Below are positions 2,812-59,163 of a stretch of DNA of 64,000 bases, one piece after another. This DNA comes from a virus (taxonomy: Duplodnaviria > Caudoviricetes). Under the pieces are notes generated by a model, which had not been told where the DNA came from, did not search any database, and saw only the letters and a list, made by a program, of their open reading frames with translations. Location: positions 4,647 to 68,646 of the IMG/VR virus record IMGVR_UViG_3300025875_000012; one strand, 5' to 3'. Position 1 is the stretch's first letter; every line of letters starts with the position of its first letter. Both the position numbers and the translations under genes were made by a program.

Positions 2812-3176
2812 TGCCCTCCTTCGCCCAGGTGGTCTGGGACTCCAGCAAGGACGAGTTCCTGCGCAAGCTCCGCAACGGGCCCGCGCTGGTCCGCAAGGCC
2901 TCGGTGGCCACCGCGAACCGCATGGCGCCCGAGGTGGCCAACTACGCCAAAGTGAACGCCCCCTGGACCGACCGCACCGGCAACGCCCGGAACGGGCTGA
3001 TGGCCCAGCCCTACGACGAAGGCGACAACGTCGGGATCGTGGTCTACCACTCGGTCTCCTACGGCATCTGGCTGGAGGTCCGCTGGGCCGGGAAGTACGC
3101 CATCATCGGCCCGACCATCGAGGTCATGGGGCCGCGGGTGATGAGCCAGTACCACAACCTCCTGGACCGGCTGTGA
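2811..3176 (+). CDS. HK97 gp10-like neck protein
   Basis: AKVNAPWTDRTGNARNGL...YGIWLEVRWAGKYAII is typical of this family. Confidence 0.75.
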   Translation: MPSFAQVVWDSSKDEFLRKLRNGPALVRKASVATANRMAPEVANYAKVNAPWTDRTGNARNGLMAQPYDEGDNVGIVVYHSVSYGIWLEVRWAGKYAIIGPTIEVMGPRVMSQYHNLLDRL

Positions 3177-4142: not shown

Positions 4143-4671
4143 GTCGCTCCCCTACGGAATCCGAGACATCAAGATCACCCCGGTGACGTCCGCCGGTGTG
4201 CTCGGAACCTCCGTGGACCTCCCGAACGCCCGCACGCTCTCCTTCGAGGAGGGCGAGGAGTTCGAGGAGCTCCGCGGTGACGACCAGGTGGTCGCCACGC
4301 GCGGATCGGGCCCGGCCGTGAGCTGGGAGCTGGAGTCCGGCGGCATCTCGCTGGAGGCCCTGGTCGTCCTGAACGGCGGCACCGTGACGCTCAGCGGCGT
4401 CACCCCGTCCCAGGTCAAGACCTACAAGAAGCTGGCGACGGACGCCCGGCCCGAGTTCAAGGTCGAGGGCCAGGCCATGTCGGAGTCGGGTGGGGACTTC
4501 CACACGATCCTCCACCGCTGCAAGTCGACCGAGGAGGTCTCGGGCGAGTTCAGCGACGGCGGCTTCTTCCTGACCGCGGCGTCGGGGTCGGCTCTGCCGT
4601 CCAAGACGACCGCCTTCGTGGGCGAGCTCTACCGCTTCGTCCACAACGAGACCGCGGCGGCCATCGCCTAG
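4129..4671 (+). CDS. Major tail protein
   Basis: LPYGIRDIKITP...ARTLSFEEGEEFEELRGDD is a siphovirus tail-tube signature; RBS GGGAG. Confidence 0.85.
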   Translation: MALNESLPYGIRDIKITPVTSAGVLGTSVDLPNARTLSFEEGEEFEELRGDDQVVATRGSGPAVSWELESGGISLEALVVLNGGTVTLSGVTPSQVKTYKKLATDARPEFKVEGQAMSESGGDFHTILHRCKSTEEVSGEFSDGGFFLTAASGSALPSKTTAFVGELYRFVHNETAAAIA

Positions 4672-45729: not shown

Positions 45730-46926
45730 ATGAGACTCGCACGAACCATCCTGCTCGGCGTCCTGGCCGTGCTGCTGACCGGCACCGCGGCCACCGCCAG
45801 CGCCAGCACCACCTACATCCTGACCGGCTCGAAGGCCCAGGAGCCGACCCTCTACCGGGGCTTCCCGAACGCCGTGGCGCGCGACGTCGCCGCGGCGCCC
45901 AAGGGCAGCCGGATCACCATGACCATGTACCTGCTCGACGACGTCGCCGTCACCGACCAGCTCATCGCCGCCCACAAGCGCGGCGTGCTCGTGCGGGCCG
46001 CCATCAGCCGGGCCGCGGCCAAGAGCGCCCAGGTGGTGCGGCTGCGCAAGGAGCTCGGGAGCGACAAGCGCAAGCCGTCCTACGTCTTCACCCCGCGGGC
46101 GTCCGGCTTCGGCCCGACCGGGGAGCTGCACGCCAAGCTGGTCACCCTGTCCCAGACCGGCAGCCAGCGCTACGTCTCCTACTTCGGCTCGGCGAACCTG
46201 GCCTACACCAACATCGGCGGCAGCTGGAACGAGGCGCAGCGGGTCGCGGACAACAAGACGATCTACGACGGCCTGGTGGCCTACGGGCTGAACGCGGTCA
46301 CCGACCGCAACCAGCCGCACTACAACCGCACGGTGAAGGCCGGCCCGCTCACCCTGCACCTGATGCCGGGCGGCACCCGCCAGCTGCGCACGCAGCTGGA
46401 CCTGGTCAAGCCCGGGAAGGGCTGCGAGCTCCGGGTCAACGAGTACATGTGGTCGGGGGCCAGCAGCACCCTGGGCGACGCCCGCAAGCTCAAGTCGCTG
46501 GCCGCCAAGGGCTGCAAGGTCTACGTCGCCATCAACTGGCAGACCGGCATCAAGGTGCTGGCCAGCCGCGAGGTCCTCAAGGAGCTGGTCGGCGCGAAGA
46601 ACGTCCAGGTCCGCAACAGCCGGATCGTGGGCGGCGCCATCGTGGTCGGCACCTACACCCACGTCAAGGGCGCCCTGTTCGCCTACGGCGGCCACAAGGT
46701 GGTCTTGTCCGGCTCCCAGAACGAGAAGGCCTCCGGGCCCTCGGAGAACGCCGACATCGCCGCGGTCCGCCGCGACGACGTCACCGCCTACAACGCCTAC
46801 AACGGCTTCTTCGGCCGGCAGTGGGCGAAGTCGGCGCCGATGACCAAGGTCCCGAGCGTCAGCAGCGCGGCGCGCAGCATGGACCGCGACGAGGTCGACC
46901 CGCCGGAGACCGACACGGCCGAGTAG
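45730..46926 (+). CDS. Secreted phospholipase D-superfamily protein
   Basis: Signal peptide MRLARTILLGVLAVLLTGTAATASA; two HxK motifs (LHAKL...GSAN; THVKG...GSQN). Confidence 0.8.
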   Translation: MRLARTILLGVLAVLLTGTAATASASTTYILTGSKAQEPTLYRGFPNAVARDVAAAPKGSRITMTMYLLDDVAVTDQLIAAHKRGVLVRAAISRAAAKSAQVVRLRKELGSDKRKPSYVFTPRASGFGPTGELHAKLVTLSQTGSQRYVSYFGSANLAYTNIGGSWNEAQRVADNKTIYDGLVAYGLNAVTDRNQPHYNRTVKAGPLTLHLMPGGTRQLRTQLDLVKPGKGCELRVNEYMWSGASSTLGDARKLKSLAAKGCKVYVAINWQTGIKVLASREVLKELVGAKNVQVRNSRIVGGAIVVGTYTHVKGALFAYGGHKVVLSGSQNEKASGPSENADIAAVRRDDVTAYNAYNGFFGRQWAKSAPMTKVPSVSSAARSMDRDEVDPPETDTAE

Positions 46927-46954
46927 GCTGGTCAGCGCTCCTCGTTCGGGCACA

Positions 46955-46992
46955 GCAGAGCCCCCGCCATTGGATCGTGGCGGGGGCTCTGC
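46955..46992. terminator. Bidirectional terminator between convergent units
   Basis: 15-bp stem gcagagcccccgcca/tggcgggggctctgc. Confidence 0.75.
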
Positions 46993-46997
46993 GCTGC

Positions 46998-47279
46998 TCA
47001 GGACTCGCGCGGACCGACGCTCTTGCGCACCATCTCGTAGCCCGCCCCGGCCGCCCGGTCGAGCACGACGGCGCGGCCCTCGGCCACCGTCTTCATCCCG
47101 TCGGCGATCTCCCGGGCGGTGAGCCCGTGGTGGTGGTAGAGCCACCGCCAGGTGTTGGCCATCCGCTCGGCCTGCTTGCTGGCCTCGGCCTGGGCGGCGA
47201 CCTTCTTGGCCAGCGCCGCGCCGGCCGCGCGCCAGAGCTCCTCGACGCTGGGGGCCTCGATCCCGACCTCAGGCGACAT
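46998..47279 (-). CDS. Small helical protein, possible DNA-binding regulator
   Basis: 93 aa; GLTAREIADGM; last gene of the minus-strand operon. Confidence 0.6.
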   Translation of the reverse strand: MSPEVGIEAPSVEELWRAAGAALAKKVAAQAEASKQAERMANTWRWLYHHHGLTAREIADGMKTVAEGRAVVLDRAAGAGYEMVRKSVGPRES

Positions 47280-47517
47280 GGATGACCACCACGATGACCA
47301 GGCCGGTGACCTCGATGGCCAGGAACATTTGGATCCAGGTCAGCACGGGGCTGGCCACCTGGGCCCGCCGCGTCCGCACCAGCACCCCGCCCTCCCAGGT
47401 CTCGGTCTCCTGGGTGTGGTCGTTGGGCTTCCACGCGGACACGATGGTGATCAGCGTCGCCCCCACGAGGGCGAGCAGGCTCACGATCACGACGGCGATC
47501 TGGGTGAAGACGTTCAT
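47269..47517 (-). CDS. Small two-TM membrane protein (Spd-like)
   Basis: ATG 47517 overlapping the previous stop; two hydrophobic helices. Confidence 0.65.
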   Translation of the reverse strand: MNVFTQIAVVIVSLLALVGATLITIVSAWKPNDHTQETETWEGGVLVRTRRAQVASPVLTWIQMFLAIEVTGLVIVVVIHVA

Positions 47518-49583
47518 GCTGCGCTCCCGGGGAAGGTCGGGGGACGCCAGCCGAGCCGGGGTCCCCACTTGTCGATGTCGGTGATGGGGCCGGCGGAGAT
47601 CATGCCCTGCTGGTACCGCCCGGTCTTGGCGTTGTAGTCGGTCGAGATGATCATGTCGTCGCCCAGTGACAAGGCGACGTGGTTCTCACCCCAGAACACC
47701 AGGGCGCCCCGCGGCGGGGTCTCCTTGCCGGGGTGCCGCTCGCCGGGGGCCTCCCAGTGCTGGCGGGCGGTGTCGTAGCCGCTCCCGAGCCCGTAGGCCA
47801 GGTTCATGTACCGCTCGCACCGGTTCCACACCCGTTCCCCGGGCGCCCCGTCGGTGGCGTCGGCCTGCCGCATCCAGGCGATGGCCTGGGCCACGGTCCG
47901 GGGGTTCTTCTGCTGGTCGAAGCTCGCCGGCGAGGTGCCGCCGCCGGTGACCTCGCCCGGGGCCGCGGCGAAGGTGACCACGACCGGACGGTGGTCGGAC
48001 CCGCGCGGAGCCAGGGTGGCCTGGCTGGTCGGGGATGCGCCGGCGGCCCAGACGTCGTCGAGCGTCGCGGTGCCGTGGGTGTTCAGCTGGCCGAGGCTCT
48101 GCCAGCTGGCGACCGCGCCGACCGCGGCCATGGCCGTCGAGGTCGACGACGACACCTTCCACGGGTCGTTGAAGTCCCCGGTGACCAGCACGGTGGCGCC
48201 CAGGGCCCGCTTCTCGGCCACGACCCGGGTGACCGCGGCGAGCTGCCGGTCGTAGGCCGCGCGCCGCTTCGGGCCCGCGGCCTTGCTGACCAGCATGTGG
48301 GTGTTGACCACGTAGAAGACCGCGCTCGAGCTCTTGTCCCGCAGCTGGGCCCAGACGATGGACTTGGGGCCCGCCGAGCGGCTGCCGTCGACCGGGGAGT
48401 ACTCGACCCGCACGCCCTCGGGCAGGGCCTTGACCACGCCCTGGTCGACGATCATGTACCGCTTGGGGTCGTACATGATCGGGGTCGCGGTGTTGTTGCT
48501 GGTCATCTCCCAGCCGGCCGTCTTGCGCAGCCGGACGCGCACCGCGGGGGACACCTCCTGCAGCCCGATCACCGCGCTGGTCTTGGCCATCTCGGCCAGG
48601 CCGGCGTGGACGTTGGCGAAGGCGTTGCCGTAGCGCACGTTCCAGGTGGCCACACCGCCCTGCACGGTCCCGCCCCCGGCCGGGCACGCCGGGATGGGCT
48701 CGGTGGTCGCGGGCGGCAGAGAGCCCGCCTCCGTGCCGCCCACGGCCGCCAGGAGCCGCCGGGCGTCGCTCTCCCAGCGTCCGTACCGGTCCGGGTGTCC
48801 TGAGCGCTCCACGGCCTGCGCCGCGTCGTTGATGCTCATCTGCTCCCAGCCCTGCACCCCCTGCAGCTGGGTGAGGAACCAGCGGGCCCCGTAGGTGACG
48901 TCCAGGCGCTGCTCGCGGGTGCCGTTGCTGTCGATCAGCTGCCACGGCCCGAGGGAGGACCCCTCGCCGTAGTTCAGGTTGCGCGGCCCGTTCGGCCCGG
49001 ACTCCTGCATCCCGGCGGCCAGCGCCACGACGGCGGCGCGGTCGTCGAGCCCGGCCGCGGCGACCTCGCGTACGACGACCTGGGCGATGGACTTGTTCTC
49101 GGGGGTGAAGCCCGGCCGCTGGGGGCTGCCGGTGCTGGTGCTGATGCTGGCGAGCTTGGGGTCGAACGGCTCGGCCTCGGGCGGCGGCGCGTCCGGCACG
49201 GGGTTGTCCGGGGTCACCGCGTTGGTGGGGCAGCACGAGGCGATGGCCAGGGCCCGGCGCCGGTCGCTCTCGACCCGCCAGCCGGTCTGCCAGCTGGAGT
49301 CCTCCCCGGTCTTGGTGTTCTCCCCCAGGTTGTCGACCCAGCCCATCACCGTGCCGATGCCGCCCATGACGGTGCGGTAGACCTCCGGCACGCTGGGGGC
49401 GTCGCCCTCGGTGAAGGCGTGCAGCACCTTGCCGACGTCGCCGAACTTCTCGCCCACACTGTAGGCCGCGGGCACGCTAGGGTCGGGCCCGCAGACGACG
49501 TCGACCTCGTCCATGTTGAAGGCGACCATGCCGACCACCAGCACGCCGGCGACCCCGGCGGCGATGCCGCGTCCGAGGTTCAT
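47514..49583 (-). CDS. Membrane-anchored multidomain wall hydrolase: lysozyme-like + EEP + NlpC/P60(CHAP)-like
   Basis: ALAAGMQES...SLGPWQL...AAQAVERS; TWNV/GLQE/NTH/GDFN/SDHRPV; RCERY...ALVFW..NHVALS. Confidence 0.8.
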   Translation of the reverse strand: MNLGRGIAAGVAGVLVVGMVAFNMDEVDVVCGPDPSVPAAYSVGEKFGDVGKVLHAFTEGDAPSVPEVYRTVMGGIGTVMGWVDNLGENTKTGEDSSWQTGWRVESDRRRALAIASCCPTNAVTPDNPVPDAPPPEAEPFDPKLASISTSTGSPQRPGFTPENKSIAQVVVREVAAAGLDDRAAVVALAAGMQESGPNGPRNLNYGEGSSLGPWQLIDSNGTREQRLDVTYGARWFLTQLQGVQGWEQMSINDAAQAVERSGHPDRYGRWESDARRLLAAVGGTEAGSLPPATTEPIPACPAGGGTVQGGVATWNVRYGNAFANVHAGLAEMAKTSAVIGLQEVSPAVRVRLRKTAGWEMTSNNTATPIMYDPKRYMIVDQGVVKALPEGVRVEYSPVDGSRSAGPKSIVWAQLRDKSSSAVFYVVNTHMLVSKAAGPKRRAAYDRQLAAVTRVVAEKRALGATVLVTGDFNDPWKVSSSTSTAMAAVGAVASWQSLGQLNTHGTATLDDVWAAGASPTSQATLAPRGSDHRPVVVTFAAAPGEVTGGGTSPASFDQQKNPRTVAQAIAWMRQADATDGAPGERVWNRCERYMNLAYGLGSGYDTARQHWEAPGERHPGKETPPRGALVFWGENHVALSLGDDMIISTDYNAKTGRYQQGMISAGPITDIDKWGPRLGWRPPTFPGSAA

Positions 49584-49894
49584 CGGCGGTGCTCGAGGGC
49601 CAGGCTGACCAGCCGCATCACCCCGGCGACCACGAGCAGAACCAAGCCGATGGCCACCGCGACCTTGGCCATCGGGCTGCCGCCGCCGATGTTGATCATC
49701 TTGCCGGCCCCGACCATCATCCCGATCCCGGTGGCGGCCACCCAGGTCGAGCGCCGGTAGCGCTTCTTCGCCGTCCAGCTGCTGGTGGTCACGGTCGCGC
49801 CCTTGACCGTCCGGGTGACGGGGCGGCTCTCCCGGACCTGGATCGTGCGGCCGTTGACGACCCGGGTGTGCGCTCGGCGGGTGTGCGTGCTCAT
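49580..49894 (-). CDS. Small membrane protein with basic N-terminus
   Basis: ATG 49894 overlapping the FtsK stop; two TM segments. Confidence 0.65.
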   Translation of the reverse strand: MSTHTRRAHTRVVNGRTIQVRESRPVTRTVKGATVTTSSWTAKKRYRRSTWVAATGIGMMVGAGKMINIGGGSPMAKVAVAIGLVLLVVAGVMRLVSLALEHRR

Positions 49895-51894
49895 TCGCTC
49901 TCTCCGTAGCCAGGGATGTGGGTGAGGTGCTCGTTGCGGCCGACCAGCGCGGGCTCGGGCCGGACCTTCCGGCGCGGGCGGGGCCGCGGTGCCGGGACCG
50001 CCGCCTCGAGCTCGCTGGCCGGGACCAGGCGCCGGCGCACGGGCTCGGCGACCAGGGGCTTGACCGGGGCCGGCTCGGGCACCGCGGTGATGGCCTTCGG
50101 CCGCCGGCGGCCGGGCAGCCGCGGGGTCTTGACCACGGCGCCGTCGCGCTCGAACTTCGGGCCGCGGTAGGTGAGCCGGGACAGGTGGACGTGCCGGTTG
50201 TTGCCGGCGCCGGCGATGTTGAACATCGGCTGCAGGGCGTGGATCTCGGCCGACTCCCAGTCGCGCGCCGCGGGCTCGCCGGCGAACACCCCGGAGGTGG
50301 TGTGGTCGACGTGCTTGGCCCACCAGCTGCAATCGGTCTCCCCGCACCCGGGGAACGGGCAGCGGCCCTTCCAGATGTCGTCGCGGCGGTGCTCGGCGTA
50401 GCGCCGGTCGCGCTTGTTGGTCTCGCCCGAGTAGATGTGCACCGGCCGCCCCTTGACCAGCCCGTAGGCCCGGTAGCCGTAGTGGGGGCGCTGGCCGTTG
50501 CGCAGCTCGCGCGCCAGGTCGCGGGTCATCATGTTCTCCGGCAGCTTGCCGGTGGTCATCAGGTGACGGACGTGGGTCTTCCCGACATCGGCGGTCCGGA
50601 ACTTCATCCGGACCCCTTCTTCGGTGACGTAGTAGCCGACTCCGCGCATATCGAAGGGAATGCTGGAGCAGGGCACACCTTCGTTCTCCCCAATTCCCAG
50701 AACGGCCTTCGTGTCCTCGGCAGAGGTCTGGCGAAGAGATGCCCGGAACTGGAATGCCTTGCGAATCCCACCGATCTCCTGAACGGTGGCGACCTGCACG
50801 CTCATCCAGACGAAATCCTTGGTACTGCGGCCCTGGGACATGTAGACGCCCATGTCAGTCTTCGCCATTCCGGCCTGGAAAAGCGGCGCGACGTCGAGGC
50901 CCTCGTCGATAATGGTGAGCACGCCGGGCATCTCGTCGGTGGGGTCGTCCAGGTCCTCGCCCGGGGGCAGCATGTCCTGGCGCTCGTGCAGCTGGCGGCG
51001 CAACGTGGCGAAGTGGGCCTCGGCCTCGGCCAGCGTGGTCATGTACGAGGCCACCTTGATGTGGCCGTCGCCGAAGGTCTTCCCGACCCAGCCGCGGAAC
51101 CACTTCATCTCGCCCTTGGGGTCGATGACGTGCACCAGGGTCGGGGTCTGGTCACGGACCAGGTCGAACCAGAGGTTCCAGGTGAACTTGCTCTTGCCGG
51201 CCCCGCTGGCCGCCCCGACCAGCAGGTTGAAGCCGTAGGGGACCGTGGCCGCCTTGCCGTCGTTCTGCCAGCCGAAGGACAGCGAGCTGGTGCCCGAGGG
51301 CGGCAGGTCCAGCACCGAGCGGGTCTCGGCCAGGGGGCTGGTCTTCCAGAAGGTGACCCAGCCGGCGCCGTCCCCGACGGGGCTGATGGAGACCTCCTTG
51401 CAGTCCATGACCCCGGTGAGCACGCCGGTGGCGGCGTCGGCGGAGATGCGGGCCATGTCCCCGCCCAGGGAGCCCGGGGAGACGAAGGCCCGGACCTCCC
51501 CGCCCGGGGTCAGCTTCTTGCGCAGCAGCTTCGGCTCGATGCCGTTCCAGGAGACCTTCTGGGCCGAGGTGTACTTCGCCCAGCGCTCGTCGACGTCGCC
51601 GAACTTCTTGCCCGAGCTGGCCAGGTTGAACGGCAGCCGCCACCACGGCACCTCGAGGCCCTCGTCGATGAGCTCGGCGCGGCGGTCGTAGACCTTGAGC
51701 AGCAGCACCCAGGCGATCAGCACGCCGATGGTGAACAGCACGGCCCAGAAGCCGGTCACGATGCTGTTGGTCAGGCCCCAGCAGAACCACCAGTAGGCCA
51801 CGAAGAGGGTCAGGGCGGCCTTCGGCGGGAAGTCGATCCAGCGCCGGTTCGGGGTGCGGATCCACTTCCAGAGGGCCTTGAGGGTGGGGGACAT
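49891..51894 (-). CDS. FtsK/SpoIIIE (TraB-like) membrane ATPase fused to a GIY-YIG nuclease domain
   Basis: ATG 51894 with AGGAAGG RBS; N-terminal TMs; GAASGAGKS, IDPK, IIDE, SQGRS, VQ motifs; C-terminal YGYRAY..YSGET..RRYAEH..E..P.FN. Confidence 0.85.
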   Translation of the reverse strand: MSPTLKALWKWIRTPNRRWIDFPPKAALTLFVAYWWFCWGLTNSIVTGFWAVLFTIGVLIAWVLLLKVYDRRAELIDEGLEVPWWRLPFNLASSGKKFGDVDERWAKYTSAQKVSWNGIEPKLLRKKLTPGGEVRAFVSPGSLGGDMARISADAATGVLTGVMDCKEVSISPVGDGAGWVTFWKTSPLAETRSVLDLPPSGTSSLSFGWQNDGKAATVPYGFNLLVGAASGAGKSKFTWNLWFDLVRDQTPTLVHVIDPKGEMKWFRGWVGKTFGDGHIKVASYMTTLAEAEAHFATLRRQLHERQDMLPPGEDLDDPTDEMPGVLTIIDEGLDVAPLFQAGMAKTDMGVYMSQGRSTKDFVWMSVQVATVQEIGGIRKAFQFRASLRQTSAEDTKAVLGIGENEGVPCSSIPFDMRGVGYYVTEEGVRMKFRTADVGKTHVRHLMTTGKLPENMMTRDLARELRNGQRPHYGYRAYGLVKGRPVHIYSGETNKRDRRYAEHRRDDIWKGRCPFPGCGETDCSWWAKHVDHTTSGVFAGEPAARDWESAEIHALQPMFNIAGAGNNRHVHLSRLTYRGPKFERDGAVVKTPRLPGRRRPKAITAVPEPAPVKPLVAEPVRRRLVPASELEAAVPAPRPRPRRKVRPEPALVGRNEHLTHIPGYGESE

Positions 51895-51983
51895 CGGCGG
51901 GCCTTCCTGGGGTAGGGGGTGGAGATGGGAGAGCGCCGTCGCCCTGGCCGGCGGCGGCGCTCTGGTGGGGTGACCGGGACGGG

Positions 51984-52220
51984 TCAGGGGGTGGCGGGCT
52001 TCTTGGCGGACGCGATGTCCATGGCCTCGGAGAACTTGTCCCCGCCCCCGGACGTGGAGCCGGCGATGATGCCGGACCCGATCTCGAAGGTGTCCCGGGT
52101 GCCGTTGGCCAGGTTGGCGGCCTTCTGGGTGGAGGTCATCTGGGCGATGCCTCCGAGCGCTAACGCGCAGACCACGAAGACGCCGGCGAGCAGCCGGCTG
52201 AGTGAGCCCTGCTTGAACAT
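51984..52220 (-). CDS. Small pilin-like/secreted protein
   Basis: ATG 52220 with AGAAGGG RBS; 78 aa with one N-terminal hydrophobic helix. Confidence 0.65.
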   Translation of the reverse strand: MFKQGSLSRLLAGVFVVCALALGGIAQMTSTQKAANLANGTRDTFEIGSGIIAGSTSGGGDKFSEAMDIASAKKPATP

Positions 52221-52820
52221 GTGGTGCCCTTCTGTCGAGGGCCAGCGGCCCTGGGTTAGGTGTCGACCGCTGACGTGCACCGCTCGTCGCCGCGGACCTC
52301 TCCGAGGTCAGACGCGGCATGTTCTCGACCTGGCCTCGCCCGACTTCCGGAGCCGTTCCCGCTGGTGGCTCACGACTGTCAGTTGTCGTGGGTATCACTT
52401 TACCCATAGATCGACATATCCACCCAAGAACCGCTCCGCCTCCCGGTCTCCAGGCCCCCGTCCCCGCCTGATCCTTGCGTCGGCTTGACTCGCCGGTTAC
52501 GCTCGCGGCGTCTCACGCTCTCCGAGACTCGGCCGCCGCGCAGCCCTCTCCGGGCCCCTACCGCCCCGAATCCGTCGTCGCCGGCGCCCCGCATCCCAGT
52601 CGACGTCCCGCTCCTCGGGCGTCATGCCTCTCCCGGGTGCAGCGCTCCCCCTGCAGCTGCCCACCGCGCGCCCCTCGCGGTCTCGTCCCCGTCAGCCGCG
52701 CATCGTCCCGGGCGATCACCCGCCCCCGCCTTCCCTCGGCTCGTTCCGCACCTCCGATGCGTTTCCGTCCTCGGCCCTACACTGAACCCCGGGTCGAGGC
52801 CACCCTCCCGAAGGACAGCT

Positions 52821-53795
52821 ATGTCGAGAAGGTCTGCGCCCACCGTTGCCAGCTGGAACGTCTGGATGGGCAACACCCCCGCGAACATCCGCCGAGGACT
52901 GAGGGCGCTGATCGACGCGGGCGCCGACGTGATCGGCTGCCAGGAGCTCAGCGTGGACGCCTCCTACCTGGACGCGCGCAGCTTCATGGCGACGCTGGGC
53001 TGGGGGTCGACGGCGAAGAACAACGCCATCCCGATCTTCTTCGACGAGGCCGTCTACGACCTGGTCGACGAGGACTACCAGGTGGTGAACCTGGGCGGTG
53101 AGCCCTGGGAGCCGGGGACGGGCGGGGACACGGTCATCCGCAAGGCGCTGACGTGGGTGCGGCTCAAGCACCGCGCGACCGGCGAGGAGACCTACGTCGT
53201 CAACAACCACATCGTTCCGGGCATCGAGGCCGACGGGCAGATCCGCAAGGACGTCCCGAAGCGGCTGGCTGTCTACGTCGAGCAGATGGACGCGCTGGCC
53301 GAGATCTGTCGGGCGTTCAGCCGGACCGGGGCGGCCGTGGCCGCGACCGGGGACTTCAACCTGGCGCACAACGAGCCGTCCGGGGAGGACCTGCGCCGGC
53401 GCATGGGCGCGGTCGGCTTCCGGTCGTGCTGGCAGGCCCTGGGTGACGACCAGCCGACCCACGGCGACCGGATCATCGACTACGTCTGGTTCGACCGGTG
53501 CTGGGCCAAGAGTGACCGTGTCTTGGACAAGTACGGGAGTGACCACTCACCGGTCGTTTGTGACCTGAACCCGTACTTGCGGACCTACGTGGTCGACCGG
53601 AGTCGATTTGTCGACCCGGACGACGGGAAGAACTTCCTCTGGGGCGTCAACGTCGCCACGGGGGAGGCCGAGCTCAAGCGCAAGCCCGGCTTCGCCATCA
53701 CGACGGGCGTGGCCATCACCACCATCAAGGGGCGGAAGTGGCTGGTCACCGAGGCCGGCTACCGCTACGCCCTCAGCTTCCTGCGACCCGCCTGA
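52821..53795 (+). CDS. EEP (endonuclease/exonuclease/phosphatase) protein with small C-terminal domain
   Basis: ATG 52821 after AAGGA; SWNV, DVIGCQE, NNH, TGDFN, IDYVW, GSDHSPV. Confidence 0.85.
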   Translation: MSRRSAPTVASWNVWMGNTPANIRRGLRALIDAGADVIGCQELSVDASYLDARSFMATLGWGSTAKNNAIPIFFDEAVYDLVDEDYQVVNLGGEPWEPGTGGDTVIRKALTWVRLKHRATGEETYVVNNHIVPGIEADGQIRKDVPKRLAVYVEQMDALAEICRAFSRTGAAVAATGDFNLAHNEPSGEDLRRRMGAVGFRSCWQALGDDQPTHGDRIIDYVWFDRCWAKSDRVLDKYGSDHSPVVCDLNPYLRTYVVDRSRFVDPDDGKNFLWGVNVATGEAELKRKPGFAITTGVAITTIKGRKWLVTEAGYRYALSFLRPA

Positions 53796-57481: not shown

Positions 57482-57832
57482 ATGCCTCTCTCGACCTCGG
57501 CCAAGAACACGATGCTGACCGCGCTGGCGGGGGTGGCTGCCTACGCCTCGCTGCACACCGCTGACCCGAGCACCACGGGGGCCTCGGAGGCCACCGGCGG
57601 CAGCCCGGCCTACGCCCGCAAGGCGATCACCTGGAACGCCGCGGCCGCGGCGAACCTGGACAACCTGGCCAACCCGGTGTTCGACGTCCCGGCCGGCACC
57701 TACACCCACTTCGGGCTGTGGACCGCGGCCACCGGCGGCACCTTCCTGGGTGGCGGCACGCTGTCGGCCTCGGAGACCTTCTCGGCTCAGGGGCAGTACA
57801 CCCTGAGCGACGTCGACGTGAACCTCCCCTGA
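57482..57832 (+). CDS. Small virion structural protein
   Basis: SLHTADP...YARKAITW...THFGLWTAATGGTFL. Confidence 0.7.
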   Translation: MPLSTSAKNTMLTALAGVAAYASLHTADPSTTGASEATGGSPAYARKAITWNAAAAANLDNLANPVFDVPAGTYTHFGLWTAATGGTFLGGGTLSASETFSAQGQYTLSDVDVNLP

Positions 57833-59163
57833 TGAGCTACGCGGAAGAGCAGCGGCGCTTCGAGTCGATGGGCGAGAGGGCTGACGCCGAGATCGCCGTG
57901 GTGCGAGCCGCTCTGGCGGCCAAGGCCGACGAGCTCGCGGCTGCCAAGGCCGACGACCTGTCCGACGAGGCCCAGATCACGAAGCTGGCCGGCGACCTCG
58001 CGGCTGCGCAGGCGCGCATCGTGGAGCTGCAGGCGCTGCAGCCCACCGACGACCGCCCCAGCGGCCCGGGCTTCGTGCGGTACGAGAGCCTCTACCGGTC
58101 CGGGGACACCGTCTCCGACGTCCTGGCCCGGGTCTCTGACGGGCGTGTGGTGACCTTCCCGGAGGGCCGCTTCGAGGTGGCGGACTTCGCCGCCGGCTAC
58201 CTGGCGGGCATCAGCGTCGCCCCCGGCTGCGGCGGGATCATCGGCAGCGGCCAGGGCACCCTCGGCGGCAGCAAGGGCACCGTCTTCACGATGAAGGAGC
58301 GGAGCTCGACGAAGGCCGCCCTCGTGCCCAAGCAGGACGACGTCACGCCGATGCAGCTGGTCCTGCTCAAGTCGCTGGACCCCACCACCCCGAAGACGTT
58401 CCAGAACTTCCAGGTGGCCGGCACCGAGCAGGGGCACATCTACTCGCTGGTGCAGCACTACAACAACGGCAGCGGCGGCCAGCGCGCGCTGATGGACACC
58501 CTGTTCCAGGACCTGCTTCTGGTCGGCTGGGACGGCAACGCCGGCGCCCCTCCCGGCGAGACGTCGGCCCTGTCGGTCTCCGGGCCGGGCTACCACGTCC
58601 AGCGCCGGGTCGAGATCGACGGTCGTCGTGCGCTGGGCGGGCCGGTGTTCGGGGCGATGGGCCTCACCCACCAGAACGCCTACGGCGCCCTGGCCGAGGA
58701 CGTCTACTCCCACCACTGCCGGGTCGCCAACTTCGTCGGCTTCCAGTCGGTCAACGGCATCGTGCGCCGGCTCCGCTCCGACGCGGCCACCGGTGTGACG
58801 AACGGCCTCGGCAACGGGTCGCTGAACTTCGAGCGCACGGCCGGCTACCTGCTCGAGGGCTGCGAGATCATCGGCCGGCAGCGCAAGGTGCACATCACGC
58901 ACAGCAACGACCACTGGTCGCTGAACCTGAACGGGAAGAGCTACCCCATCGACGGCGGCTCGCTGACGGTCGTCGACCCGAAGTGGAACGGCCTCTGGCG
59001 CCCCGACGAGCTGGCGGACTACCTCTACGTCCAGTCGTGGGGCCCGTACTGGAACGGGTCGACCATGAGCTTCTCCAAGACCGCTCCGGTGGTCCGCAAG
59101 GCCGATGGCTCGCACATCCCGTACAAGTACGTGGCCGCGGACGGCCGGGGAGTCGTGACCTGA
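57832..59163 (+). CDS. Pectin-lyase-like beta-helix protein (tailspike/depolymerase-like) with N-terminal coiled coil
   Basis: TGATG overlap; VVTFPEGRF...GIIGSG typical of beta-helix N-termini. Confidence 0.6.
   Translation: MSYAEEQRRFESMGERADAEIAVVRAALAAKADELAAAKADDLSDEAQITKLAGDLAAAQARIVELQALQPTDDRPSGPGFVRYESLYRSGDTVSDVLARVSDGRVVTFPEGRFEVADFAAGYLAGISVAPGCGGIIGSGQGTLGGSKGTVFTMKERSSTKAALVPKQDDVTPMQLVLLKSLDPTTPKTFQNFQVAGTEQGHIYSLVQHYNNGSGGQRALMDTLFQDLLLVGWDGNAGAPPGETSALSVSGPGYHVQRRVEIDGRRALGGPVFGAMGLTHQNAYGALAEDVYSHHCRVANFVGFQSVNGIVRRLRSDAATGVTNGLGNGSLNFERTAGYLLEGCEIIGRQRKVHITHSNDHWSLNLNGKSYPIDGGSLTVVDPKWNGLWRPDELADYLYVQSWGPYWNGSTMSFSKTAPVVRKADGSHIPYKYVAADGRGVVT

Follow-up and report, generated by a model that had tools for sequence, protein, structure and literature searches.

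A family of phage FtsK/TraB-class ATPases with a predicted membrane anchor and a C-terminal GIY-YIG nuclease domain

The locus examined here lies in a 64,000-nucleotide stretch of viral DNA (the window), which corresponds to positions 4647–68646 of the IMG/VR record IMGVR_UViG_3300025875_000012 and has a GC content of ~70%. On its minus strand the window encodes a 667-amino-acid protein, P0001, that begins with a predicted membrane anchor and an FtsK/TraB-class ATPase and continues in the same frame into a GIY-YIG nuclease domain whose catalytic residues are intact. A preliminary description of this DNA, made from the sequence alone, had proposed such a motor–nuclease fusion from a stretch that corresponds to the final 209 codons of the gene, and this architecture was borne out. 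The full record is 68,646 bp (68.6 kb) long, carries direct terminal repeats and is rated 100 for completeness by CheckV. No tyrosine or serine integrase was found in it; with a complete, terminally repeated genome and no such gene, the phage looks lytic, and it is apparently a tailed phage of actinobacteria. The gene and the parts of its product are as follows, with pLDDT denoting the predicted local distance difference test score.

49891–51894, minus strand: gene for P0001 (667 amino acids; transmembrane, FtsK and GIY-YIG regions), including the stop codon, from the open reading frame and choice of start
51694–51819, minus strand: two predicted transmembrane helices (residues ~26–42 and 46–67; outer loop of 3–4 residues), from hydropathy and the model
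50545–51612, minus strand: FtsK-type alpha/beta motor (residues 95–450), from fold and profile matches
51190–51213, minus strand: Walker A motif AASGAGKS (K234), with G233 and K234 invariant in 118 of 118 homologues
50899–50916, minus strand: Walker B motif TIIDEG (D330, E331), both residues present in 118 of 118 homologues
50209–50487, minus strand: GIY-YIG nuclease domain (residues 470–562), from the family profile, fold and residues
50461–50484, minus strand: HYGYRAYG (residues 471–478)
50389–50439, minus strand: HIYSGETNKRDRRYAEH (residues 486–502)
50305–50379, minus strand: Cys/His-rich insert in the GIY-YIG domain (residues 506–530; C512, C517, C522, H528, H531), from the sequence and the model
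50329–50361, minus strand: CPFPGCGETDC (residues 512–522)
50218–50259, minus strand: WESAEIHALQPMFN (residues 546–559)
49930–50208, minus strand: disordered Pro/Arg/Ala-rich tail (residues 563–655; pLDDT 34–58), varying in length and sequence among homologues
49894–49929, minus strand: conserved C-terminal peptide HLTHIPGYGESE (last 12 residues), with the same end in P0003, P0004, P0012 and P0014

The ATG at 51894 was taken as the true start because it is preceded by an AGGAAGG ribosome-binding site, all homologues start at the same methionine, and a longer alternative overlaps another gene. This alternative, an 838-amino-acid open reading frame running from 52407 to 49891, was rejected as the true gene on these grounds, its extension overlapping a separate gene for a 78-amino-acid protein. 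The coding part thereby spans 49894–51894, with the stop codon at 49891–49893. All of the motifs quoted in the preliminary description fall in this one minus-strand frame, and the Pro/Arg-rich tail that it placed after the nuclease is present and runs to the stop codon.

The structure of P0001 was predicted with AlphaFold2 on 80 homologues (mean pLDDT 85.6; predicted template modelling score 0.72). Near the N-terminus, residues 26–67 form a hydrophobic helical hairpin with a hydropathy peak of 2.45 at residues 48–66; the modelled helices span residues 24–42 and 45–77, and positively charged residues flank the anchor before the first and after the second transmembrane helix. The motor model (residues 95–450) aligned with Escherichia coli FtsK (2ius, residues 858–1235) over 316 residues with a Z score of 26.7 (VIA-align), and the conjugative coupling protein TcpA (6o1x) was also among the top structural matches (Z 25.2 over ~315 residues; VIA-align). 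Foldseek searches with the motor returned 6t8g (E 6.5e-15) and TcpA (E 1.7e-14), and the family profile matched the FtsK sequence in the PDB at E 1.3e-11. In addition to the Walker residues, Q367 is kept in 117 and R378 in 116 of the 118 homologues, and by position only these are inferred to be the sensor glutamine and the arginine finger, respectively.

Taken alone, P0001 gave no Pfam match to the FtsK/SpoIIIE family PF01580, which was matched by 58 of the 80 homologues. Its own matches were a weak one to EccCa (NCBIfam, E 9.7e-6, far under the cut-off) and a weak one to an FtsK/SpoIIIE-like PHROG (E 7e-4), and neither P0001 nor its C-terminus had a significant match in Pfam, NCBIfam or PADLOC. 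The homologues matched only generic FtsK-like ATPase models in PADLOC, and the ESM Atlas gave nothing but generic FtsK-like clusters under 0.9. From its sequence and model, P0001 is an ATPase of the FtsK/TraB/TcpA class that retains all of the motor residues and has a predicted membrane anchor.

Because P0001 itself lacks a significant Pfam or NCBIfam match, the case for the nuclease domain rests on the family profile and the fold. A hidden Markov model (HMM) built from 16 homologues, with P0001 left out, matched positions ~512–600 of the open frame at E 1.9e-6, and PF01541 was matched by 43 of the 80 homologues (best E 8e-10). Searches with P0001 or its C-terminus alone gave a weak match to an 'endonuclease' PHROG (E 0.0077), the family profile matched UvrC (1yd6) weakly (E 0.14), and a phmmer search of the C-terminus against PDB sequences gave no match. 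Residues 470–562 modelled alone reached a pLDDT of 85.4, and the beta-beta-alpha-beta-alpha fold of the GIY-YIG superfamily is present in the P0001 model. The nuclease model superposed on UvrC (1ycz) with a Z score of 8.2 and a root mean square deviation of 1.9 Å over 74 residues, followed by I-TevI (Z 6.4) and T4 EndoII (Z 6.2), with the next unrelated fold at Z 3.1. The nine best fold matches include UvrC, I-TevI, T4 EndoII, HIGLE, PD-T4-3, Slx1 and Eco29kI, and the top 16 Foldseek matches were all GIY-YIG proteins, with a probability of up to 0.98.

The expected catalytic residues are kept almost without exception among the 118 homologues: Y474 (117), Y488 (116), G490 (118), R498 (118), H502 (116), E547 (117) and N559 (117). 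The spacings Y488–R498–H502 and E547–N559 (10, 4 and 12 residues) equal those of Y29–R39–Y43 and E76–N88 in UvrC, in a UvrC numbering drawn in part from the titles of PDB mutant entries. The preliminary description had allowed that the domain might be something other than GIY-YIG; fold, profile and residues together indicate that it is GIY-YIG, well beyond chance, with all catalytic residues intact and nuclease activity predicted. The conservation indicates that the ATPase and nuclease active sites are both under strong selection. The fold and the catalytic Tyr, Tyr, Arg, His, Glu and Asn are shared with the UvrC N-terminal domain, T4 EndoII and I-TevI, whereas P0001 differs from minimal GIY-YIG nucleases in carrying a 25-residue Cys/His insert and in lacking a DNA-binding partner domain; its engagement with DNA would have to come from the motor.

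This insert has the pattern Cys-x4-Cys-x4-Cys-x5-His-x2-His and is modelled as a beta-hairpin; it may possibly be a structural metal site. The preliminary description had called it Zn-like, and the cluster of cysteines is indeed present, but the insert is specific to a subclade and absent from most of the family, and only C512, W525 and H528 are invariant among the insert positions of that subclade (11-member alignment). Relatives show C-x-E-H...W-x-x-H at the insert site, such that a candidate metal position is kept while the ligands vary. At the far end of the tail, the C-terminal tip conforms to HLTHI(P/D)G(Y/F/W)GxSE within the subclade of P0001, and at least 16 family members carry a looser version, aromatic-G-x-(S)-E; the tip looks like a short docking or autoregulatory peptide.

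Relatives of P0001 were sought across several databases. A word-based search gave 8 relatives, 2 of which had precomputed annotation with both PF01541 and PF01580. An exhaustive profile search of 1.84 billion representatives returned 309 proteins at E<1e-30, and for the majority of the top 150 the match extended through the nuclease region. When HMMs from 16 relatives were applied, 148 of 158 retrieved proteins showed both domains, separated by a median linker of 13 residues, and the family is accordingly counted as at least 148 clusters at 50% identity with both domains. A FastTree phylogeny of the motor domain (253 tips, rooted on the largest cellular clade) placed all 153 fused proteins and 10 unfused metagenome proteins in one clade (support 0.92), with 80 cellular and 10 viral unfused motors outside it; the tips were gathered with a nuclease-containing profile, so fused proteins are over-sampled. 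The tree indicates that the fusion arose once and was then kept with occasional loss; the family is old and monophyletic.

These data bear on the idea, also raised in the preliminary description, that a homing endonuclease is fused only in this genome: the fusion is instead found in at least 148 clusters forming one clade. A broader form of the same idea is that a homing-type GIY-YIG domain was by chance appended to the 3′ terminus of an FtsK-like phage gene and contributes nothing to what the motor does. In its favour, stand-alone proteins of 130–470 amino acids with this GIY-YIG subtype (LLYVGI...R..EH...E...N) are encoded on at least 50 other viral contigs (among L111–L229); they match the family nuclease HMM at E 1e-17 to 1e-28. 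Against a selfish passenger, the fusion has been kept in at least 148 clusters of one clade, on a short linker, with catalytic residues invariant (116–118 of 118) and with synteny across phages down to 39% identity, and no NUMOD, helix-turn-helix or other DNA-binding module was found 3′ of the nuclease domain. A GIY-YIG homing endonuclease of the I-TevI type was rejected on account of the missing separate DNA-binding domain and the monophyletic, syntenic distribution, and we regard the passenger explanation as very improbable. Because the same subtype is common as stand-alone genes on viral contigs, a free-standing phage nuclease gene was the likely donor of the domain. Three of the stand-alone contigs (L120, L137 and L189) carry a separate FtsK-like gene 5–7 kb off.

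Beyond the window, the fused form was found at six loci on IMG/VR viral contigs (L002, L003, L084, L114, L199 and L201, the last being partial and nearly identical to L199 across their overlap) and on a metagenome contig, L108, which carries the fused gene in the same phage backbone as the window. A tblastn search with P0001 against 50,697 GenBank phages gave no match, and P0016 gave only ATPase matches to phages, from Bacillus and Mycobacterium phages. The fused form was not found in PLSDB plasmids, where tblastn gave one Gordonia FtsK-like protein in an uninformative context, nor in the best 80 of 320 GTDB loci sharing motor peptide patterns. It was likewise not found in 802 sampled actinobacterial genomes, 47 of which have the motor, with matches ending by model position 484 of 566. 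Scans of viral contigs with P0017, P0160 and P0021 gave no match. The corresponding scan with P0022 gave just 288-amino-acid truncated remnants (L109:4275–5141 and L110:7974–8840), which share 77% identity with the N-terminal 150 residues of P0022 and contain neither a complete ATPase nor a nuclease. Among the databases searched, the family has so far been seen only on phage and metagenome DNA, and it is apparently phage-restricted.

The closest cellular relatives of the motor are the Tra proteins of pSAM2-type integrative conjugative elements. One such element, in Cryptosporangium japonicum (L006:5561–12645), encodes in a row a GntR/UTRA regulator, a 491-amino-acid FtsK-like Tra, RepSA and a tyrosine integrase, and P0001 is 28% identical to its Tra protein (BLASTP E 7e-15; hhalign probability 99.6%). 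This element is of textbook pSAM2 type, and Tra-type motors were present in 47 of the 802 sampled actinobacterial genomes. The preliminary description had the nuclease replacing the DNA-recognition domain of the motor. The nuclease does sit where FtsK has its gamma domain and TraB its clt-reading domain, but the closest unfused relatives (Tra proteins of actinobacterial integrative conjugative elements and phage FtsK-like proteins, 440–530 amino acids) stop ~30 residues past the ATPase, leaving no room for a winged helix. Because these nearest unfused relatives end right past the ATPase, the nuclease looks like an addition to a motor already without a gamma domain, not a literal replacement of a winged helix. 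In P0001 no C-terminal winged helix that could read FtsK-orienting polar sequences (KOPS) or clt/TraB recognition sequence (TRS) repeats was found: the motor–nuclease linker (residues 451–469, ~20 residues) is too short, residues 470–562 are GIY-YIG, and the remainder is disordered.

Six genes make up the only minus-strand cassette of the window (46998–52220), with the pump gene in second position. The other features of the cassette are as follows.

51984–52220, minus strand: gene 1, 78-amino-acid protein whose N-terminus resembles a signal anchor, the body being rich in Gly and Ser; homologue with 62% identity in L002, no Pfam or PHROG match
51930–51963, minus strand: hairpin with 14-nucleotide arms between gene 1 and the pump gene (inverted repeat I17, 93% complementary, GC-rich)
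49580–49894, minus strand: gene 3, 104-amino-acid protein, basic at the N-terminus and with two hydrophobic helices at the C-terminus; no family match
47514–49583, minus strand: gene 4, 689-amino-acid wall hydrolase, predicted to be membrane-anchored, with lysozyme-like, EEP and C-terminal domains (Pfam and PHROG)
47269–47568, minus strand: gene 5, 99-amino-acid protein with two hydrophobic helices; homologue in L003
46998–47279, minus strand: gene 6, 93-amino-acid helical protein at the end of the cassette; no family match
46950–46997, no strand assigned: hairpin with 20-nucleotide arms and an 8-nucleotide loop between the cassette end and a convergent PLD-like gene (inverted repeat I1, 90% complementary)

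The ATG of the 104-amino-acid gene overlaps the stop codon of the pump gene (ATGA), and the start of the hydrolase gene overlaps the stop codon of the 104-amino-acid gene in the same way (ATGA). An open reading frame of like size and position to the 104-amino-acid gene is present in L002 and L003, and homologues of the hydrolase lie directly 3′ of the pump gene in L002, L003 and L108. The hydrolase was assigned from matches to Pfam Exo_endo_phos (E 1.2e-6), a tape-measure lysozyme-like region in PHROG (E 7.9e-21) and a PHROG endolysin (E 8e-8). The pump–hydrolase pair and the ATGA overlaps are kept in the window, L002 (pump 70% identity), L003 (54%) and L108 (39%), all on the same phage backbone. 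From this gene order, the pump gene in this phage lineage is predicted to be translationally coupled to small membrane proteins and to a membrane-anchored wall hydrolase. The hairpin at 51930–51963 may be an attenuator that leaves the 78-amino-acid protein in excess, and that at 46950–46997 is likely a bidirectional terminator. A simple scan for sigma-70-like promoters in 46500–53000 found none.

In another family member, the 973-amino-acid metagenome protein P0068, the GIY-YIG domain is followed by an extra hydrophobic or transmembrane helix and then by an SLT/lysozyme domain (matching Pfam SLT_3 at E 2.9e-11). This protein would constitute an independent 'Rosetta stone' link between the pump–nuclease and wall hydrolysis, mirroring the operon in the window.

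Two EEP domains lie within 6 kb of each other near the cassette, one in the cassette hydrolase (47514–49583) and one at 52821–53795; the latter is in the first gene of a lysis block next to the cassette, and a PG_binding_1 endolysin-like gene belongs to the same block. Farther along, the gene at 57718–59163 was considered as the large terminase and this was found to be wrong, its 481-amino-acid product resembling glycoside hydrolases (~26% identity, E 3e-10, to those of the Microbacterium phages Shocker and Pumpernickel).

P0001 and its cassette were compared with known membrane-associated DNA motors. Like P0001, TraB/Tra proteins are membrane-anchored FtsK-like ATPases, homology of the motor to pSAM2-type Tra being evident from the matches above, and their spd operon of small coupled membrane proteins resembles the P0001 cassette (PMC4447253). 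They differ in being carried on conjugative plasmids or integrative elements with rep, int and kor genes, whereas P0001 is on a tailed-phage record in which no integrase was found. TraB also has a clt-reading C-terminus where P0001 has GIY-YIG, and the P0001 cassette has no clt-like repeats, lacks a GntR regulator and includes a large wall hydrolase in the operon. TcpA of the Clostridium perfringens plasmid pCW3 shares with P0001 an N-terminal membrane anchor and an FtsK-like domain (fold match Z 25), and TcpA-type systems partner genetically with a peptidoglycan hydrolase (TcpG, CwlT); the P0001 cassette in turn lacks a relaxase, a VirB4-like ATPase and a VirB6-like channel protein and has the nuclease domain added. 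With FtsK and SpoIIIE the protein has in common the alpha/beta motor fold, the Walker A and B motifs, the sensor Gln, the Arg and membrane anchoring, but it is phage-encoded, has two rather than four transmembrane helices, lacks the long linker and the gamma winged helix, and carries GIY-YIG and the C-terminal peptide instead. On this analysis P0001 would work like TraB/Tra and TcpA, with a homologous motor, and it is neither TraB proper nor FtsK proper, nor SNIPE (considered below), nor a homing endonuclease.

For the function, the preliminary description had offered export of DNA combined with cutting, or else destruction of DNA, either incoming or of the host. The reading ranked first here is that P0001 is a TraB/TcpA-like conduit for DNA across the cell envelope, with the nuclease making a DNA end, to which we assign a rough probability of 0.35. 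The protein would form a membrane-bound hexameric ring that pumps duplex DNA. As DNA in FtsK passes through the beta ring first and the alpha ring second (PMC7321959), the direction of transport can be proposed from the domain order. The alpha domain lies one helix after the anchor, so the alpha ring would be membrane-proximal and the beta ring and C-terminal nuclease would face the cytoplasm; DNA would be driven from the cytoplasm to the membrane, with six nuclease domains at the DNA-entry face, where FtsK has gamma. The gamma domain of FtsK reads DNA and talks to XerCD. The pump, the hydrolase and the small membrane proteins could together form a conduit moving DNA out of the infected compartment, for example phage DNA into neighbouring cells or hyphal compartments in the absence of virions. 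By cutting DNA that is replicating or concatemeric, the nuclease would supply a single free end for a narrow pore, and it would perhaps also end transfer. The grounds for favouring this reading are indirect: the motor is of Tra ancestry, its gene is coupled to that of the hydrolase, P0068 carries the two functions in one chain, the polarity fits, and a suggestion concerning Spd proteins is already in the literature. TraB by itself transfers double-stranded plasmid DNA, spd genes are translationally coupled, and actinophage Spd homologues have been proposed to aid the spread of phage DNA (PMC4447253).

The same polarity fits another proposal, in which a membrane-tethered 'reel and cut' enzyme hauls the chromosome of the host up to the membrane and breaks it into pieces, shutting down the host and supplying nucleotides to a lytic phage. 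DNA would be pulled to the membrane with the nuclease on the entry face, and a pore would not be needed (PMC7321959). The phage looks lytic, with a complete genome, direct terminal repeats and no integrase found, and the fused form was not found in the cellular genomes searched. One of the closest fold matches to the nuclease domain is T4 EndoII, which starts host DNA breakdown (Z 6.2). This proposal leaves unexplained both how the phage's own DNA would be spared and why the pump should be coupled to a wall hydrolase, and the host-degrading phage nucleases already known to us require neither a membrane anchor nor a ring motor. We consider destruction of host DNA unlikely, and rank it third.

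Several points weigh against DNA export. The gene was found in no cultured phage in the GenBank phage searches, and a mycelial or filamentous host is an assumption of the analysis. TraB-type transfer is reported to move unprocessed DNA, such that a nuclease is not needed, and one that has no DNA-binding domain of its own would put the transported DNA at risk if it were not kept under tight control. The argument from polarity presupposes that P0001 translocates in the same direction as FtsK and has the domain order of the model. No clt/TRS-like or KOPS-like repeat array was found in or near the cassette. P0068 is a single predicted metagenome protein, for which a gene-calling or assembly artefact is possible. 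Finally, the contexts of the fused gene in L084, L114 and L199 have no neighbouring hydrolase and look like accessory or conflict loci. In L199 an Acb2/Tad1-hairpin protein (2856–3110; Pfam E 2.5e-13) is encoded directly 3′ of the fused gene and 5′ of terminase-like and portal-like genes, which in L199 and L201 were assigned by gene order, the 537-amino-acid protein having no Pfam match. Proteins of the Acb2/Tad1 type are anti-defence sponges. In L114 (1528–8146), divergent XRE-DUF5753 and DUF6879 genes lie upstream of the fused gene and DndB-like and terminase large subunit genes downstream, and in L084 a gene for a phage FDXHR zinc-binding protein lies downstream.

Such variable accessory contexts, with an Acb2/Tad1-like neighbour in L199 and a DndB-like one in L114, would suit an enzyme of exclusion, and the same applies to the location of the gene in this window, within the one cassette that is reverse-oriented. 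In this explanation P0001 is a membrane-sited, motor-driven counterpart of SNIPE that captures, reels in and cuts DNA injected or conjugated into the infected cell, the cytoplasmic DNA of the phage itself being spared by the location of the enzyme. SNIPE, which consists of a membrane anchor, DUF4041 and GIY-YIG, cuts the DNA of phages while it is being injected (Saxton et al., Nature 2026, PMC13190303); it resembles P0001 in being membrane-tethered with a cytoplasmic GIY-YIG domain and provides a precedent for DNA cutting at the membrane. It differs in being host-encoded, in having a single transmembrane pass and no ATPase, and in having DUF4041 in the middle where P0001 has the FtsK motor, and no sequence relationship between the two was detected (no match in PADLOC). 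Anti-invader systems repeatedly feature HerA/FtsK motors linked to endonucleases (PMC10853773), and DndH-C (7es4; Z 18.7) and HerA defence complexes were among the fold matches of the motor. DndH-type proteins share with P0001 a motor of the HerA/FtsK class paired, within one chain or complex, with an endonuclease (PMC10853773), but they are soluble and cellular, with a restriction-endonuclease fold and many other domains, whereas P0001 is compact, membrane-anchored and phage-encoded, with GIY-YIG. The essentially invariant nuclease residues would also be in keeping with exclusion.

Against this explanation, no PADLOC family matches P0001, the homologues match generic ATPase models only, and P0001 itself lacks DUF4041. 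That the fused form was not found in the 802 sampled actinobacterial genomes implies that it is not prophage-borne, the situation in which exclusion pays most, and no integrase was found in the window's phage. Under FtsK polarity, moreover, DNA leaving the membrane would meet the alpha face and not the nuclease face, and neither the conserved coupled wall hydrolase nor the P0068 lysozyme fusion would be expected of a shredder on the cytoplasmic face. Exclusion was ranked second, as an unlikely explanation but the closest competitor to DNA export; after it come destruction of host DNA, then other roles as a group, less likely again, and at a great distance the selfish passenger.

Literature searches found no published description of an FtsK–GIY-YIG fusion, and the source names of family members are only automatic ones ('S-DNA-T family DNA segregation ATPase FtsK/SpoIIIE', 'predicted GIY-YIG superfamily endonuclease'). 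To our knowledge, the membrane-anchored FtsK-family motors FtsK, SpoIIIE and TraB are the only machines known to push duplex DNA across membranes or septa, and we know of no characterised membrane motor of this family that bears a nuclease. FtsK-like genes have been noted in Streptomyces phage genomes without a known role (bioRxiv 10.1101/2024.02.16.580700; PMC11536984). The large, old and uncharacterised family described here, in which a predicted membrane DNA pump is permanently joined to an intact GIY-YIG domain, offers a concrete and testable case for such genes. In its general form, the proposal would be that actinobacterial tailed phages carry a conjugation-like apparatus, consisting of a TraB-class pump–nuclease, a wall hydrolase and small membrane proteins, for virion-independent spread between cells or hyphal compartments; we put this forward tentatively, as a little more doubtful than export by P0001 itself. 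If exclusion is correct, the family would be a motorised, phage-borne counterpart of the SNIPE mechanism. If instead DNA export and spread are correct, the nuclease would resolve the question of how a ring-shaped pump can thread circular or concatemeric duplex DNA through a narrow pore, and the family would represent a new mode of phage propagation and offer an entry to the as yet unsolved problem of DNA processing in conjugation of the Streptomyces type.

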